Shown here piece by piece: positions 32,320 to 39,661 of a DNA stretch of 64,000 nucleotides; the first letter of the stretch is position 1; each line of letters starts with the position of its first letter. The stretch is taken from the NCBI GenBank assembly GCA_002779605.1, contig PEWE01000033.1:11686-75685 (forward strand), written 5' to 3'. The translations under genes and the position numbers were made by a program. The notes beneath the pieces are model-generated. The model searched no databases, was not told the origin of the DNA, and saw nothing but the letters and a program-made list of their open reading frames with translations. The DNA comes from Zetaproteobacteria bacterium CG06_land_8_20_14_3_00_59_53 (GTDB lineage: Bacteria; Pseudomonadota; Zetaproteobacteria; Mariprofundales; Mariprofundaceae).

Positions 32320-32335
32320 TGTGATAAATGTCACA
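32320..32335. promoter_or_regulatory. perfect CRP/FNR-family type palindrome TGTGA-N6-TCACA
   Basis: TGTGATAAATGTCACA, centred about 109 nt upstream of the osmC-like ATG (32437) that heads the cyclase operon. Confidence 0.45.
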
Positions 32336-32436: not shown

Positions 32437-33000
32437 ATGTCCGAGCACATCAACGGGGTCAATCTCAACAACATCAGCGCGCTGATCGGTGCCATTCAGG
32501 AAAACAACGATCTGTCCAAGGTGCGTTTCCATGTGGAATCCAGCTGGGCGGGCGGCACGCAGACAAAGGTGCGCGTTAACGAGATGTATGCCAATGAGCA
32601 GAACATCGCACGCGAGGACCGGAATTTCGAGATGATCGTGGACGAGCCGGCACAGCTGGGCGGCGTGGACGAAGGTCCGAACCCGGTGGAAACCATCGCC
32701 GCCGGACTGTGCGGCTGTATCACCGCCGGCATGGCCACCAACGGCGCGCTGTTCGGCACCGAATTCAAGAAAATCGACATGGATTGCGATGTGTTCTTCG
32801 ACGTACGCGGCGTGTTCGGCTTGGACAAGACGGACACCATTCCGAACGGCGCGCTGCGCATCAACCTGAACATCCGCGCGAAGAGCGATGCCGACGAGGC
32901 TGAGGTGCGCAAGGTGAAGGAGATCATCGACAGGAAATCGCCGATGAAAAACACCCTGGAACTGCCACTAGAAATCACCACCAATCTGATCATCGAGTAA
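32437..33000 (+). CDS. OsmC-family protein (paralog 1)
   Basis: 187 aa with OsmC/Ohr-fold pattern (...GPNPVETIAAGLCGCITAG...). About 30% identical by eye to the ORF at 39938-40501. GGGGAAGG lies upstream of the ATG. Confidence 0.8.
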   Translation: MSEHINGVNLNNISALIGAIQENNDLSKVRFHVESSWAGGTQTKVRVNEMYANEQNIAREDRNFEMIVDEPAQLGGVDEGPNPVETIAAGLCGCITAGMATNGALFGTEFKKIDMDCDVFFDVRGVFGLDKTDTIPNGALRINLNIRAKSDADEAEVRKVKEIIDRKSPMKNTLELPLEITTNLIIE

Positions 33001-33065
33001 TCGTGCTCATTTCCGGGGCCATGCCGCCAGCGGCGGTCTCCGGGATTTGAATATGCGGGGAGAGC

Positions 33066-36000
33066 ATGGGTAATAGCATCGCAGCAGTCGGATTCAGCGA
33101 GCTTGAGGATTCGTTTCAGGCTGGCTTCGAGGCGGCCAGGCAGGCCTCTTCCTCGGTGGGCAACCACAGCGGCTGGAAGCTTGCCATGCTCATGTCCACC
33201 GCACGGCACGATCCGATGCGCCTGCAGGAAGGCGTGCAGAGCGTCATCGGCCGGGGCTGCGAACTGATCGGCGGCTATGCCGTCGGCATCATCACCAACG
33301 ACAAGCTGGCCTACGATGGCTTCCAGGTCGGCATCCTGCTGCTCTCGCCTTCAGCCGGAGCCGTCTTCGATATCTTCTCTGAAGGCGGGCTGGCCGACAA
33401 CGAAGCAAAGGTCGGCGAGAAACTCGCAAAAAGCATCGGCCGGCACAGCTTCGATACCGAAAACCCTTCACTGGTGCTGCTATACGACGCGGTGAACCGC
33501 ATGTCCGGGCGATTCAAGATGAACATGGCCACCTATGTGCTCGACGGGATGAAACAGAGCATGGATCGCTGGCCGCCGACGCTGGTCGGTGCCGGCATGG
33601 TCGGCGATATGCAATGCCGCGAAACCTTCCAGTGGTGCAACGGCCGGTTGCATCAGCAATCCGCCATCGCACTGGCCCTTTCCGGCTCGCTGCGCATCGA
33701 TGCCACCATCATGCACGGTTGCCGCCCGGCCAGCCGTTACCACCGCATCACCAAATCGGAAGGCAATGTGGTGCTGGAGATCGACGGCGTACCCGCACTG
33801 GACAAGATTTCGGAGTTGCTCGGACCGGATTCCGGCAAGACCTGGCGCGACTACAGCTTTTTCGTCACGCTCGGAGTGAATCGCGGCGATAAATTCGGCG
33901 AATTCGTTGAAAACAACTACGCCAACCGGCTATGCATGGGCGTGGACCTCGAGCGCAAAGGGCTGGTGATGTTCGAGCCGGATCTGGTGCCCGGCTCTGA
34001 AGTTCAGTTGATGCGCCGCGATGTGAACTTCGGCTATATCCATGAAAAGGTGAATGAGGTGCTGGCACGCGTCGGCGACCGCAAGCCGGTGTTCGCACTA
34101 TACATCGACTGCGCCGGCCGCGCCGCCTCCTACTCCGGCTTCGACGACGAGGATGCCGAGGAGGTGCAGCGCACGCTCGGCGATATCCCCCTGCTCGGCT
34201 TCTATACCGGCGTGGAGATCGGCCCGGTGGCCGGTGAACCGATGGCGCTGGACTGGACAGGCGTGCTGGCCATCGTCAGCGAAGGTGAACCCGGCTCACT
34301 GGCTTCCCCCGTTGCAACCGGGCAAGCATCCATCGAACTGCTGCCGCTGGCCGGCGATGCAGCGACCGGCGACATCAACCCGGACGAACTGGACGAACGT
34401 ATCCGCGTCTCCGAGGAACGCTTTCAGGCGCTGCAAAGCGAGAGCGATTACTACGCCGGCCTGTCCGACGAACTCGCCGGAAAGAATCTCAGGATGGATT
34501 CCCATCTGACCGCGCTGAACCACAGGCTGCACACCAAGAAACAGGGCCTCGCCATTCTCTCCCGACTGCACGACACATTCGGAACTCCAAGCCCCTTCGA
34601 AGAGCTGTGCCGCACCACGATGCAGGAGATCAACACCGAGCTGAACATGGACAAGACCATGGTCCTGCTTGAGCGCGACGGCGCATTCTGCCCCGCATAC
34701 TGGAGCGGCTATACCGAAGCCGAAGCCTTCAGCCTGGAGCACATCCATCTGCCGCTGCTAGCTGAGTGGATGAAGGTCAACTTCCTGCTAGGCAACCGCA
34801 ACACGCGAGGCGAGGCCGATGTGCAGCAGATCCGTAACATGACCCGCCTGCCCTACTTTGTCTGTGTGACCATTCGCGAAGCGGGAAAAATCACCGGCCT
34901 GATGCTTTCCGGGCGCATGAAAGAAGCGATGCCCTTCTATCCGCCACTGGTCGAAGAGGATGCAAGCACCCTGATCACCATCGCAGCCTTTCTCTCGGTC
35001 ACCGACCAGATGAACCGGCAGCGTCTGCAACTCGACCAGCTCAACGCCTTGAGCAGCAGCGGCGCGAAGCATTCGGTCACGGCTAATGTCGCGGCCACTG
35101 GTGCGACAAAAACGGCGGACGACAGCAGTGATGCTGCGGATGACCCCTATCAGGACATGAGTAGCGACGAATTACGCGACTGCCTGCGCAATATTGCTGC
35201 GGAACTGGCCGATCAGAAGCGCTCCAGCGAATACTACGGCTCGCTGGCCGATGAACTGGCCGGCCAGAATGTGAAAAAAGACTCCTCGCTGTCGATGCTC
35301 AACAACGAGCTGCGCATCAAGCGGCAGGGCTTCGCCATCCTTTCCGAGCTGCAGGACAGGCTGAACAGCCAGCAGACCATGGACAAGCTCTGCCCGCTGG
35401 TCATTCGCAGCATCAATATGACCCTGAACATGGACAAATCCATGGTGCTGTTCGAGAGCGAGGGCGTGCTGCGTCCTGCATTCTGGAGCGGTTTCTCCGA
35501 AATGGAGGTCTACGACATCGAGGACCTCGAAATGCCCATGGACGAGGACTGGATGGAAAACGGCCACCTGCTGGCCAACCGACGTACCGGCAAGGACGAG
35601 ATGGTGCTGCGCGCCAAGAACTTCATCCCCATCCCGTTCTTCATCGCCGTGCCCATCCGGCAGGACGATCGGACCATCGGCCTGCTGGTTTCCGGGCGGC
35701 TGAAAGAGGCCAAGCCCTTCTATCCGCCTCTGGCCAGGGAGGATGTGAACACATTCACGGCCATTTCGGGCTTCCTGTCCTCGACCGACCAGCTGAACCG
35801 GCAGCGCGACCACCTGCAGGAGATGAATCTGAATCTGGAGAAGAAGGTCAAGGAGCGCACCTCCGACCTGAGCGACGCGCTGGGCAAGCTGGAAGTGAAG
35901 AACCGCTTCATCAGGAAAACCTTCGGGCGTTACATGTCCGACGCGGTGGTGGAAAGCATCCTGGAAACCCCGGAAGGCCTGCATCTCGGAGGCCAGACGC

Positions 36001-36938
36001 TGCCGGTGACCATCCTGTTTTCCGATCTGCGCGGCTTCTCGGCTATTTCCGAATCCCTGCCGCCGGAACACGTCGTCGAACTGCTGAATATTTATCTTGA
36101 GGAGATGACACGTATTGTCTTCAAGTATTCCGGCACCATCAATGAGTTGATGGGTGATGGTATCCTGATCGTGTTCGGCGCGCCGAGCGCGAAACCGGAC
36201 GATGCCGACCGCGCCGTGGCCTGCGCCATGGAAATGCAGATGACCATGAACAAGGTCAACGCACGCATCACCGCCAAGGGTTTTCCGGAGCTGCACATGG
36301 GCATCGGTATCAACACCGGCCAGGTGGTCGCCGGCAACGTCGGCTCGGACATGCGCACCAAGTACGCCGTGGTGGGCAGCAATGTGAATCTTGCAGCGCG
36401 CGTGGAGTCGTTCACCGTCGGCGGCCAGGTGCTGGCCACACAATCCACACTCGATGCCCTGACCACCGAGATCAAGGTGGCCGGCGAGTTTTCCACCAAC
36501 TTCAAGGGCATCAAGGAACCGGTCGTCATGCACGACATCACTGGCATTAACGGAGATTTCAAGCTGCAACTGCCCGAGAAGGTCATCGAATACCGGAAAC
36601 TGGCGAACGGCTTGCCGATAAGGGTGGAACTGGTCGAGGGCAAGTCCTCGCAAGGCAGACAGATCACCGGTGCCATCCTCGCGCTGGCCGACCACTACGC
36701 CATGCTTGCCGTGGACGGCAAGCTGGAGAAACATGCCAACATGAAGATTCACCTCGATTCGCCGGGGCTTCCCGCGGACACCCATGTGTATGCCAAGGTC
36801 ATGAAGGACTGTGGCAAAGATTGCGGAAAGGGTTGCAGCGAGGTGAACTTCACCTATATGAGCCGGGAGACCCGCATCTTCCTGGACCAGATCAAAACCG
36901 TACAGGGTCAACAATGGGGAGACGATGCAATTACATGA
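33066..36938 (+). CDS. multidomain class III nucleotidyl cyclase: FIST_N/FIST_C sensor, two (coiled-coil + GAF-like) modules, cyclase catalytic domain, C-terminal PilZ-like beta domain
   Basis: FIST pattern in aa 1-400. Internal 261-aa duplication. Catalytic motifs FSDLRGF, ELMGDGILIVFG, GINTGQVVAGNVG, VGSNVNLAARVES. The PilZ-like call for the last ~120 aa is tentative. Confidence 0.85.
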   Translation: MGNSIAAVGFSELEDSFQAGFEAARQASSSVGNHSGWKLAMLMSTARHDPMRLQEGVQSVIGRGCELIGGYAVGIITNDKLAYDGFQVGILLLSPSAGAVFDIFSEGGLADNEAKVGEKLAKSIGRHSFDTENPSLVLLYDAVNRMSGRFKMNMATYVLDGMKQSMDRWPPTLVGAGMVGDMQCRETFQWCNGRLHQQSAIALALSGSLRIDATIMHGCRPASRYHRITKSEGNVVLEIDGVPALDKISELLGPDSGKTWRDYSFFVTLGVNRGDKFGEFVENNYANRLCMGVDLERKGLVMFEPDLVPGSEVQLMRRDVNFGYIHEKVNEVLARVGDRKPVFALYIDCAGRAASYSGFDDEDAEEVQRTLGDIPLLGFYTGVEIGPVAGEPMALDWTGVLAIVSEGEPGSLASPVATGQASIELLPLAGDAATGDINPDELDERIRVSEERFQALQSESDYYAGLSDELAGKNLRMDSHLTALNHRLHTKKQGLAILSRLHDTFGTPSPFEELCRTTMQEINTELNMDKTMVLLERDGAFCPAYWSGYTEAEAFSLEHIHLPLLAEWMKVNFLLGNRNTRGEADVQQIRNMTRLPYFVCVTIREAGKITGLMLSGRMKEAMPFYPPLVEEDASTLITIAAFLSVTDQMNRQRLQLDQLNALSSSGAKHSVTANVAATGATKTADDSSDAADDPYQDMSSDELRDCLRNIAAELADQKRSSEYYGSLADELAGQNVKKDSSLSMLNNELRIKRQGFAILSELQDRLNSQQTMDKLCPLVIRSINMTLNMDKSMVLFESEGVLRPAFWSGFSEMEVYDIEDLEMPMDEDWMENGHLLANRRTGKDEMVLRAKNFIPIPFFIAVPIRQDDRTIGLLVSGRLKEAKPFYPPLAREDVNTFTAISGFLSSTDQLNRQRDHLQEMNLNLEKKVKERTSDLSDALGKLEVKNRFIRKTFGRYMSDAVVESILETPEGLHLGGQTLPVTILFSDLRGFSAISESLPPEHVVELLNIYLEEMTRIVFKYSGTINELMGDGILIVFGAPSAKPDDADRAVACAMEMQMTMNKVNARITAKGFPELHMGIGINTGQVVAGNVGSDMRTKYAVVGSNVNLAARVESFTVGGQVLATQSTLDALTTEIKVAGEFSTNFKGIKEPVVMHDITGINGDFKLQLPEKVIEYRKLANGLPIRVELVEGKSSQGRQITGAILALADHYAMLAVDGKLEKHANMKIHLDSPGLPADTHVYAKVMKDCGKDCGKGCSEVNFTYMSRETRIFLDQIKTVQGQQWGDDAIT
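34383..35840 (+). repeat. tandem intragenic duplication (period 783 nt = 261 codons) encoding two coiled-coil + GAF-like modules
   Basis: DELDERIR...YYAGLSDELAGKN...LNMDKTMVLLE...FYPPL...TDQMNRQR aligns with DELRDCLR...YYGSLADELAGQN...LNMDKSMVLFE...FYPPL...TDQLNRQR. Two similar 69-codon antisense ORFs at 34451 and 35234 show the same 783-nt offset. Confidence 0.85.
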
Positions 36939-38103
36939 TCATGGGGAATCCATTACCAGCTACGATGAGCTGGTCAACGCACTGCGCACGGCGGTGCAAG
37001 TGGAACTGGGGGTGCTGCCGCCCTATTTCACGGCGATGTATTCGATCAGGGATCAGGGCAGCCCGGAGTTCCGGCTCATGCGCGGCGTGCTGATGGAGGA
37101 GATGCTGCATCTGGCGCTGAACTGCAACCTGCTCAACGCTATCGGTTCGGCACCTTTGATCCAGCCGCCCTACACGCCGAATTACCCCCTGCCGCTGCCG
37201 CACTATCATCAGGGCTTCGAGGTGCATCTTTCGCCGCTCACCCGGGAGTTTGCACGCGACACACTGATGGTCATCGAGCGCCCGTCATGGACGGTGCACG
37301 ATTCTCATGACGCAGCACCCGCCCAGGCCTCGGGCTGGGAAACACTGGGACAGTTCTACAAGGGCATCATCGACGGCTTCATCACCGTGCACAAACAGAA
37401 ACCCGACCTGTTCGCCCATGCGGCGCGGCAATACGGCACCAACGGCATCTACTCCAACGGCGGCGGTTATCTGAAGGCCGTGGGCAGCCTGCGCGACGCC
37501 ATCATCGCCATCGAGGAAAACCTCATCCAGACCCAGGGCACCAAGGGGAAAGAGTACCAGCCATGCGGTCCGGACGGTGCGATGGAACTGTCGCACTTCG
37601 ACAACTTCCGCGAGATCGCCGACGGCAACATACCCATCGGCGAGGTGTACCCGATGCTGCCGGACATCAAGGCCCATCAACTCTCCGGCCCGCTGAAAGC
37701 ACTATCCGGCCTGTTCGACGACTGCTGGCGCCTGTTCCTCGATGCACTGAACGAGACCTTCAGCAACCCGTTCAACTACAGCATCTACTTCACCCAATCC
37801 ATGTGGCTGATGAAAAAGGTGTTTCCGGAACTCGCCGTCCTTTTGATGTCCTCACCCATCGACCCGAACCAGCCGCAACTTGGCAACGCCGGCCCGGCCT
37901 TCTACTGCGATCCAAATGCGAAAACGCGCAGCATCAGCGAGGTGCTGGGCGATGCGGTGCTGGTGATGTCCATGACCGACCGGCCGGAATGGAAGAAGGC
38001 CGTGGGCTCCACCATCGAGACTCTGGAATACATGATGGTCGAACGCCGCCGCATCGAGGAGCGCAGCGACTACAGCCATGCCGCGGAGTCGTCCGCGGCA
38101 TAA
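36925..38103 (+). CDS. stand-alone ferritin-like domain protein (VioB/RebD-type 'Ferritin-like' family)
   Basis: VQVELGVLPPYFTAMYSI...MEEMLHLALNCNLLNAIGSAP matches the signature I recall from the C-terminal domain of VioB (LELSVMLQYLYAAYSI...EEMIHYLVVNNLLMALG). Its start overlaps the cyclase stop by 14 nt. Confidence 0.65.
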   Translation: MQLHDHGESITSYDELVNALRTAVQVELGVLPPYFTAMYSIRDQGSPEFRLMRGVLMEEMLHLALNCNLLNAIGSAPLIQPPYTPNYPLPLPHYHQGFEVHLSPLTREFARDTLMVIERPSWTVHDSHDAAPAQASGWETLGQFYKGIIDGFITVHKQKPDLFAHAARQYGTNGIYSNGGGYLKAVGSLRDAIIAIEENLIQTQGTKGKEYQPCGPDGAMELSHFDNFREIADGNIPIGEVYPMLPDIKAHQLSGPLKALSGLFDDCWRLFLDALNETFSNPFNYSIYFTQSMWLMKKVFPELAVLLMSSPIDPNQPQLGNAGPAFYCDPNAKTRSISEVLGDAVLVMSMTDRPEWKKAVGSTIETLEYMMVERRRIEERSDYSHAAESSAA

Positions 38104-38130
38104 GCAACCGACTCTGCCTCACTGAAATGC

Positions 38131-38161
38131 ACAGCGCGCCGGGTGTCCCCCGGCGCGCTGT
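38131..38161. terminator. GC-rich hairpin between convergent genes
   Basis: ACAGCGCGCCGGG-tgtcc-CCCGGCGCGCTGT (13-bp stem) followed by TTCGT. The U-tract is weak. Confidence 0.55.
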
Positions 38162-38181
38162 TTCGTGGGACTTCCCCGACC

Positions 38182-39661
38182 TTACATCAGATCGAGCAGG
38201 TAACGCGGCGTCGGGTGACGCCTGGCCACCTTCAGCTTGTCCGCCACGTCATCTGTGAGATAGATGTGCGGATTCTCATGCGCATCGTCAAGCACATGCT
38301 TGGCCACGTGGGTACCCGAGATCCAGCATTCCTCGTGCAAGCCGGCCCCTTGGGTGTAGCCACCGGTGAAATACACATTGTCGATGCCTTTCATCATCAC
38401 CGGCGCGATATTGTCCTGTGCCTTGGTTGCCTCGACGTTCAGGCGGTAGTGATAGAATTTGAACATCGTGCAGTCCCCGAAAGTTTTGTTGTTCAGACGG
38501 CAGATATCGGGGACCGGATTCAGCGGATTCAGGGTCAGGAAGAACTGCGGTGTCATACCCCGGTATGTCGGATTCTTCGGATCGTTCTGGTGGCGATTCG
38601 CCCAGTAGGTGATGTTGTAGCGTTCCGGACTGTCACGGTCGGCAAACACGTTGATGTTGTAGGTGGCCCACAGGTTCGGGTCCGGCGGCATATTCGCCGT
38701 GGATGTATGCGCCACCACCTCGTCGGTTTCCATGCTCATGGCGTTTTTCAGCTGTTTCACCATCGCGGGAACCTGCTCCTGGCGATAGTAGATCTCCTCC
38801 AGCGTGCGTGTCTGCACGGCCACGATCACCTTGTCGAAATCCTCGGTCTGCGGCTTGCTGCCCGCAGCGGCATCCACCGGCAGCGTGTACACACGCACCT
38901 TGCCGCTATCCAGCAACTCGATCTGCGCCTTCACCCCACGGAAGATCACCTGTGGCAGCCCATGCTGCAGATAGGCGGAAAGCTTGCGGATCCAGTTCAC
39001 CGTACCTCCCACCCAGTACTGACGCTCGGGGGGCAGGACCGTGCCGTAACCTTCCTGCAGGTAATAGTAGTGCGCCACCTGACGCGCCGGCATCTCGCTG
39101 GGCCGGATCATGCCGGCGAAGTACATGCCGTTGATGCGCGGGTACAGGTTCAGATAGACGTAGTCATCGGGAAAGCCGGCCCACTTCACGAACTGGTCCA
39201 TGGTCCACCATTGCATGTCCTTGTGCTGATCCATGTCTTCCAGCTTCAGGTAACGCTTGATCGCATCGCCGAACATGGCGGCACCCTTGAGCACCCCCTC
39301 GGGGGCATTGTGCCCCATCTGCGGCCGGTCACTGGAGGGCATGGTGTAGCCCACGACGGTTTCCGGATCGAATGCCCCGCCCGGGCCGATGTTGGAATAA
39401 CCTGTGGAATCCTCCAGCGGGGCATATTCAACACCCAGCCTGGTGAACACTTCCATCAGGTTCGTATAACTGTTCTTGTTGAAATCGTTGACACCGAGAT
39501 CCACCCAGCGGTTCACCCCGCCGACGTTCAACGGGATCGTTCGGGCGTTACCGCCGACGTTGTGCACCCGTTCGAACACCTTGAACTCATGGTCTTGTTC
39601 TTTCAGATGGTAGGCAGCAGCCAATCCGGACCCCCCCCCCCCCGATAATCGCTACTTTCAT
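38182..39661 (-). CDS. FAD-dependent amine-oxidase-like oxidoreductase (COG2907-like), out of frame at a poly-G tract in the sequence as given
   Basis: ATG 39661 gives MKVAII + G13. With 12 G it reads MKVAIIGGGGSGLAAAYHLKEQDHEFKVFER..GG (FAD beta-alpha-beta), continuous with the 480-codon ORF 38182-39624. C-terminal FTGGYTQGAGLHEECWISG. Confidence 0.75.
39631..39643 (-). repeat. 13-nt homopolymeric G tract (C13 on the plus strand) inside the GxGxxG codons
   Basis: Counted directly: positions 39631-39643 are all C on the plus strand. Confidence 0.95.

Follow-up and report, generated by a model that had tools for sequence, protein, structure and literature searches.

Which nucleotide is the substrate of the class III cyclase encoded on contig PEWE01000033.1 (assembly GCA_002779605.1) of Zetaproteobacteria bacterium CG06_land_8_20_14_3_00_59_53? 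We analysed a stretch of 64,000 nucleotides (nt) of this contig (positions 11,686 to 75,685, forward strand; hereinafter the window, to which coordinates refer unless another locus is named). An open reading frame at 33066-36935 translates into a protein of 1290 amino acids (aa), and it is the segment 36000-36560 (aa 979-1165) that raises the question: the original prediction, made by eye, placed Glu and Ala at the base-specifying positions of an otherwise intact catalytic site and proposed GTP or another non-ATP substrate. The present analysis leads us to predict, with a probability of roughly 0.7, that the protein is a class III nucleotidyl cyclase of the Cya2 subfamily, active as a soluble homodimer, which turns GTP into 3',5'-cyclic GMP (cGMP). 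The gene, its catalytic domain and the residues on which this reading turns are as follows.

33066..36938, plus strand: whole cyclase gene, consisting of FIST, two repeats of coiled coil plus GAF-like module, class III cyclase and PilZ-like domain (open reading frame, translation; Pfam domains)
36003..36533, plus strand: class III nucleotidyl cyclase catalytic domain, Cya2 type, aa 980-1156 (Pfam Guanylate_cyc, E 4e-28; phmmer match to 2W01; model)
36024..36032, plus strand: Asp987 (first metal Asp; Cya2 D448) and Arg989 (phosphate-binding; Cya2 R450) (alignment; PMC6005667 Table 1)
36144..36158, plus strand: Glu1027 (base-specifying; Cya2 E488) to Asp1031 (second metal Asp; Cya2 D492) (alignment)
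36360..36368, plus strand: Lys1099-Tyr1100-Ala1101, the Lys corresponding to Cya2 K560 and bPAC D265, the Ala to Cya2 G562 and bPAC T267
36387..36401, plus strand: Asn1108 and Arg1112, the transition-state pair, with Ala1111 at the position of Cya2 Tyr572 (alignment; PMC4215837 for the role of the Tyr)
36504..36506, plus strand: Lys1147 (Cya2 K608, triphosphate contact), conserved in 149 of 153 family stretches (alignment)

The catalytic domain possesses the cyclase homology fold of PF00211, and its closest solved relatives are of the Cya2 type. When the protein was compared to all PDB chains with phmmer, the best matches were Cya2 itself, the one bacterial cGMP producer whose structure has been solved (2W01, E 3.5e-64), and a phytochrome-Cya2(E488K) chimera (6FHT, E 9.6e-74), with the adenylate cyclases CyaB (3R5G, E 3.8e-34) and CyaC (1WC0, E 1e-29) far behind. 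An AlphaFold2 model of aa 940-1290 (predicted local distance difference test score, pLDDT, 88.7; predicted template modelling score, pTM, 0.86) superimposes on 2W01 with a root-mean-square deviation of 0.9 Å and a template modelling (TM) score of 0.97 at 51% identity, whereas the deviation is 1.5-2.2 Å from the adenylate cyclases (32-35% identity) and about 2.5 Å from RhGC (about 26% identity); across 2W01, 3R5G and 1WC0, TM scores normalised to target length range from 0.83 to 0.97. These comparisons and the alignments below establish the fold of the cyclase, its full set of catalytic residues and the specificity triad.

The active site can be mapped onto that of Cya2 almost without change. 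The published list of Cya2 active-site residues (D448, E488, D492, R450, G562, N569, R573, K608; PMC6005667) corresponds, with every residue number shifted by 539, to D987, E1027, D1031, R989, A1101, N1108, R1112 and K1147, and the sole change across the list is Gly562 to Ala1101. The catalytic residues D987, D1031, N1108, R1112, R989 and K1147 are all intact, as had been noticed by eye for the first four, and translation and alignment confirm the earlier numbering of D987, E1027, D1031, A1101, N1108 and R1112 exactly. The presence of the two metal Asp and the Asn/Arg pair within one chain makes the domain homodimer-competent.

What, then, occupies the positions that choose the base? When the domain is aligned to solved structures with HMMER, INELMGDG is matched with IDEFMGDG of Cya2, IDKFVGD of CyaB and VDKFVGD of CyaC, so that E1027, within an E-x-x-G-D motif, coincides with Cya2 Glu488 and with the Lys that specifies adenine in Pseudomonas aeruginosa CyaB (3R5G) and Spirulina CyaC (1WC0); the assignment of this Glu to the base-specifying position therefore stands, although it lies four residues before the second metal Asp and not three as initially counted. 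TKYAVVGSNVN is matched by HMMER with TKYGVVGAQVN of Cya2, MDYTIIGREVN of CyaB and SDFTAIGPSVN of CyaC, which pairs A1101 with Cya2 Gly562 and with the Thr found in CyaB and CyaC; for both residues, the alignments based on hidden Markov models and on structures agree with the by-eye placement. Rigorous alignment thus gives Glu/Ala and not Lys/Asp: the Lys plus Asp/Thr pair of the class IIIa and IIIb adenylate cyclases is replaced by Glu at the adenine-specifying Lys position and by a small residue, Ala (Gly in Cya2), at the Asp/Thr position. Furthermore, a third determinant, K1099, matches the Lys in K-Y-G of Cya2, a position held by Asp in the class IIIb adenylate cyclases (D-Y/F-T); we infer that it is the 'supporting Lys' of PMC6005667.

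Experiments on relatives show how much hangs on these positions. With the substitutions K197E/D265K/T267G, bPAC changed from an adenylate to a guanylate cyclase (PMC4569695), and the same three positions read E1027/K1099/A1101 here, a match based on consistent chain offsets in the phmmer hit; the single switch E488K makes an adenylate cyclase of Cya2 (PMC5995499). In the crystal structure of RhGC with GTP, specificity is determined mainly by the hydrogen bond between the Glu and N1/N2; the second residue, which is poorly conserved, contributes shape complementarity without a hydrogen bond (PMC7384201); Gly562 of Cya2 likewise gives shape complementarity only (review PMC6005667). In steric terms, Ala would lie between the Gly of Cya2 and the Cys/Ser of eukaryotic guanylate cyclases. 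Because the domain is closely related to Cya2, a proven guanylate cyclase (PMC6005667), GTP is the best supported substrate; this part of the original proposal holds up, whereas nothing links the domain to pyrimidine cyclases. On grounds of homology, then, the protein is a predicted cGMP synthase.

This assignment is best appreciated against the characterised enzymes. Like Cya2 (sll0646 of Synechocystis sp. PCC 6803), the cyclase has the class III fold and identical residues for metal binding, the transition state and phosphate binding. In both proteins Glu replaces the Lys of adenylate cyclases, a Lys precedes the partner by two residues and the partner itself is small; the FGRY motif and the conserved C-terminal extension are shared as well. 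The differences are Gly562 versus Ala1101, Tyr572 versus Ala1111, the sensor, which in Cya2 is a membrane CHASE2 domain that is absent here and in our protein is a cytoplasmic FIST domain with two GAF-like modules, and the host, a cyanobacterium as opposed to a Zetaproteobacteria relative. The bPGC/BlgC enzyme derived from Beggiatoa bPAC shares the same three specificity positions but is an artificial BLUF-cyclase with E/K/G, whereas the protein in question is natural and has E/K/A. The class IIIb adenylate cyclases (3R5G, 1WC0) are homodimeric and have the same fold and catalytic residues at 33-35% identity, with Lys / Asp-x-Thr where the cyclase has Glu / Lys-x-Ala. The eukaryotic guanylate cyclases (soluble guanylate cyclase, or sGC, RhGC and CYG12), for their part, share the first-position Glu and a small uncharged second residue but are only about 25% identical, with Cys/Ser as the partner and other regulatory domains. 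The residue two places ahead of the partner is basic in them as well (Arg in sGC; Lys here).

By analogy with these enzymes, a mechanism can be proposed in which Asp987 and Asp1031 would hold two Mg2+/Mn2+ ions, Arg989 and Lys1147 would hold the triphosphate, and Asn1108 and Arg1112 of the partner protomer would stabilise the transition state. Glu1027, itself propped by Lys1099, would form hydrogen bonds with N1/N2 of guanine, and Ala1101 would provide shape complementarity only, like the Gly in Cya2 and the Cys/Ser in eukaryotic guanylate cyclases. Ligand binding to the FIST domain may be relayed through two helix plus GAF-like modules and the FGRY transducer to the catalytic dimer, and the PilZ-like C-terminal domain may be required for activity, by analogy with the C-terminal extension of Cya2.

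Could the Glu/Ala combination be an accident of a single protein? The 150 best representatives of 50%-identity clusters yielded 153 aligned stretches, in which the base-specifying pairs are E/G (96), E/A (29), E/S (6) and E/T (4), which places Glu/Ala second in frequency within the Cya2 family; roughly 90% of the 150 representatives retain Glu, and the catalytic DDNR set is intact in all but four of the stretches (149 of 153). In a tree built with both sites masked, Ala is gained or lost as the partner residue at least 18 times and, because of these changes, Gly and Ala look largely interchangeable. The charged positions covary: members that bear Glu nearly always have Lys at position 1099, and the rare Lys-bearing ones have Glu or Asp there, as do the FIST-linked Lys-type cyclases treated below. 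A search at the level of 90% clusters is dominated by E/T (mostly CHASE2 proteins of Nostocales) and E/G, with E/A in 10 of 124 stretches. The homologues span 85-99% of aa 940-1290 and combine this region with varied sensors (CHASE2, REC, Cache, PAS/GAF, kinase).

Closer to home, Glu/Ala and the intact catalytic residues are retained in orthologues with 72-73% identity (L001, L026), among them one at 72% in a metagenome-assembled genome (MAG) of Zetaproteobacteria. Across 121 genomes of the same class there are 21 Cya2-like loci, the window's own included, 13 with E/A and eight with E/G, the catalytic residues being intact in all; the full-length FIST architecture is found only here and in one further genus (73% identity), and Cya2-like cyclases that are shorter but end in the same tail occur frequently, at 40-61% identity. 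Judging by these sequences, the Glu/Ala state is conserved and not accidental, and the cyclase is a new member of a large, biochemically under-studied family that spans many phyla, not a new type of enzyme, though its combination of sensors is rare. The remark in the original prediction that signalling by cGMP or another cyclic nucleotide monophosphate (cNMP) would be unusual in bacteria is overstated, given the size of this Glu-Lys-Gly/Ala family and its spread over many phyla.

Several considerations nevertheless weigh against GTP as the substrate. Ryu et al. 2015 reportedly concluded that bacterial adenylate and guanylate cyclases cannot yet be separated by sequence alone, and Anabaena CyaA, a Glu/Thr relative, is said to have been cloned by complementation of an Escherichia coli cya mutant. 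Searches of the literature on 'Glu-Ala' guanylate cyclases and on G562/Y572 mutants of Cya2 found no assay of a Glu/Ala enzyme. Cya2 binds ATP and GTP alike and discriminates between them by turnover, so that specificity in the family is a kinetic property and not one of binding (PMC4284465, PMC7384201), and the engineered E/K/G enzyme bPGC still leaks one cyclic AMP (cAMP) per 4-7 cGMP (PMC4569695). Furthermore, Tyr572 of Cya2, which is reported to raise the guanylate cyclase but not the adenylate cyclase activity (PMC4215837), is replaced by Ala1111. The most serious alternative, accordingly, is a dual-specificity or ATP-preferring cyclase with cAMP, or a mixture of cAMP and cGMP, as the physiological output, and the dual specificity of the Ma1120 variant K->E/D->G/A->Y (PMC4215837) points in the same direction. 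Still, we consider this alternative unlikely, albeit by no means negligible. The Glu that is retained in most of the family would be expected to disfavour turnover of ATP, seeing that a single Glu to Lys change makes Cya2 an adenylate cyclase (PMC5995499). The Tyr is found in just 17 of the 153 family stretches and is missing from most members, including most of those with Glu/Gly; by this count Tyr572 is a peculiarity of Cya2 and not a family-defining feature.

The genome itself (2.37 Mb in 33 contigs, 99.95% complete) offers a further argument against cAMP as the product. It carries eight class III cyclase domains, of which the window cyclase is the only one of the Glu type; the remaining base-specifying pairs are five Lys/Thr, one Lys/Asp, one Arg/Thr and one Asp/Ala, and the Lys/Thr cyclases read K / D / T at the three specificity positions. 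With six or seven other cyclases in the genome, five of them Lys/Thr and one Lys/Asp, cAMP production would gain nothing from a Glu-type enzyme. The two other non-Lys cyclases, one with Asp/Ala and one with Arg/Thr, are located at G000:C17:24510-25034 (L012) and G000:C3:157131-157670 (L011). As to candidate receptors, the genome has 15 cNMP-binding domains in about 13 proteins; a search for such a domain near the cyclase found none inside the window, and the nearest one on the contig lies about 22 kb past the window end.

A cyclase for yet another nucleotide (CTP, UTP or ITP), along the lines of the Pycsar pyrimidine cyclases, we regard as very improbable: a pair other than Lys/Asp need not, as a general point, mean GTP, but the domain shows 51% identity to a guanylate cyclase of proven activity that has the same Glu-Lys pair, the protein is built like a sensory signalling protein and no effector gene typical of Pycsar adjoins. 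A Pycsar-type pyrimidine cyclase was rejected on account of the closeness to Cya2 and the lack of an adjoining effector gene. That the domain is catalytically silent or purely regulatory is hardly credible, as nothing is missing from the six canonical catalytic residues or the two that bind phosphate, and orthologues conserve both sets.

If the cyclase is a cGMP synthase, what controls it? The remaining domains of the protein are these.

33180..34226, plus strand: FIST_N (aa 39-241) and FIST_C (aa 244-387), presumed small-ligand sensor (Pfam E 3e-26 and 7e-17)
34443..35045, plus strand: repeat 1, aa 460-660, helix plus GAF-like module (46% identity to repeat 2 over 201 aa)
35226..35828, plus strand: repeat 2, aa 721-921, helix plus GAF-like module, a tandem duplication of repeat 1 (Pfam GAF at aa 773-904)
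35883..35990, plus strand: signalling helix plus cyclase transducer element, FGRY being located at aa 953-956 (nt 35922-35933)
36591..36917, plus strand: PilZ-fold beta-barrel plus helix, about aa 1176-1284 (model pLDDT 87; Foldseek; Pfam in homologues)

The FGRY motif of the cyclase transducer element has been described previously (PMC5995499), and its four positions are invariant or almost so in the alignment of the Cya2 family. There is little to suggest that the GAF-like modules are cNMP-binding tandem GAF domains of the CyaB1 or phosphodiesterase type: the GAF match is weak (E 5e-6), and inspection by eye revealed no NKFDE-like motif.

The C-terminal domain, a six-strand barrel plus helix according to the prediction, is conserved across the Cya2 family. 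A Pfam search with the C-terminal 135 aa alone found nothing, whereas 10 of 55 homologues give a Pfam PilZ match, and in the PDB the domain matches only PilZ (the top ~30 Foldseek matches, TM 0.5-0.6, E about 1e-3). Since the RxxxR and (D/N)xSxxG motifs that bind cyclic di-GMP are absent from aa 1157-1290 and from the family consensus, binding of this ligand is unlikely; K1193 and K1244, in turn, are invariant in the family. The C-terminal extension of Cya2 has been reported to be structurally uncharacterised and required for activity (Etzl et al., PMC5995499). By the model, the conserved PilZ-like tail is this extension, which gives the formerly uncharacterised region a predicted fold. A loop of the domain contains a cysteine micro-repeat, DCGKDCGKGC (aa 1248-1257; 36807-36836).

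The FIST sensor appears in the company of very different outputs. Close homologues of the FIST region (41-67% identity) are fused to GGDEF, hybrid histidine kinase, PP2C/SpoIIE and class III cyclase domains. The FIST-linked class III cyclases, metagenomic proteins of about 920-950 aa, have a homologous FIST sensor at 49-55% identity and the same fusion to a cyclase, but 19 of the 22 that were aligned read Lys / Glu-x-(Ser, Ala or Gly), charge-swapped with respect to the Glu / Lys-x-Ala seen here, and these 19 possess neither the PilZ-like tail nor the duplicated GAF-like module. Within this set of 22, a Cya2-type Glu/Lys/Ala module joined to FIST occurs only in the protein studied here and two metagenomic relatives (P0003 and P0006). 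The metagenomic FIST-cyclases P0258-P0277 are mostly Lys / Glu-x-Ser or Ala, an exact charge-swap which suggests that a coupled pair is formed by the first and third specificity positions.

Next to the cyclase gene are the following features.

32320..32335, no strand assigned: perfect palindrome of the CRP type, TGTGATAAATGTCACA, upstream of the osmC-cyclase operon (motif search)
32437..33000, plus strand: OsmC-like gene, upstream, its adjacency to the sensor gene conserved (Pfam; synteny in L001 and L002)
36925..38103, plus strand: stand-alone ferritin-like (PF12902) gene, downstream, its start overlapping the cyclase stop by 14 nt (syntenic in L002)

The order of genes in this region is not peculiar to the organism. 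In a Gallionellaceae MAG (L002, 7962-10832), a protein with a FIST plus GAF-like sensor at 56% identity ends in a PP2C/SpoIIE phosphatase, and the order OsmC, FIST-GAF, ferritin-like PF12902 and amine oxidase is syntenic with 32437-39624 of the window. Because this synteny is retained with a PP2C end, the sensor input is probably tied to the neighbour genes and the output has been swapped. Such an exchange of output domains on a conserved module of sensor and neighbours is common to two lineages of iron oxidisers. The PF12902 gene converges on a gene for a flavoprotein of the amine-oxidase family (36925-39624), and this pair is kept beside the L002 sensor gene as well. It is reminiscent of amino-acid oxidation chemistry of the VioB/VioA type.

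The palindrome TGTGATAAATGTCACA is located about 100 nt upstream of the osmC-like start and is the sole match in the 64-kb window, against 0.07 expected; in seven of 100 shuffles a match turned up at least once. The site may mark feedback of a cNMP on the operon. A more far-reaching scenario, which we put forward as doubtful, is that the FIST sensor and its neighbours (OsmC, the PF12902 ferritin-like protein, the amine-oxidase-like flavoprotein and a Pyr_redox_3 flavoprotein) would constitute a metabolite- or redox-sensing module of iron-oxidising Zetaproteobacteria and Gallionellaceae, its output rewired to cGMP synthesis here and to PP2C in Gallionellaceae; the protein would then be the first FIST-gated cGMP synthase, and it might be autoregulated via the upstream CRP-type site by a cGMP-responsive factor of the CRP family.

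To our knowledge, bacterial cGMP signalling has been proven in a handful of cases only, namely Synechocystis Cya2, Rhodospirillum centenum and Xanthomonas campestris. If the cyclase indeed makes cGMP, this messenger would extend to the iron-oxidising Zetaproteobacteria, and a homologous FIST sensor coupled to a cyclase that reads Glu/Lys/Ala in this protein and Lys/Glu/Ser or Ala in the relatives would provide a clean natural comparison. Furthermore, roughly one-fifth of the Cya2-like enzymes carry Ala, which raises the question of whether they behave like the Glu/Gly prototype, and at stake in the answer is the annotation of the Cya2-like proteins, which at present are uniformly labelled 'adenylate cyclase'.

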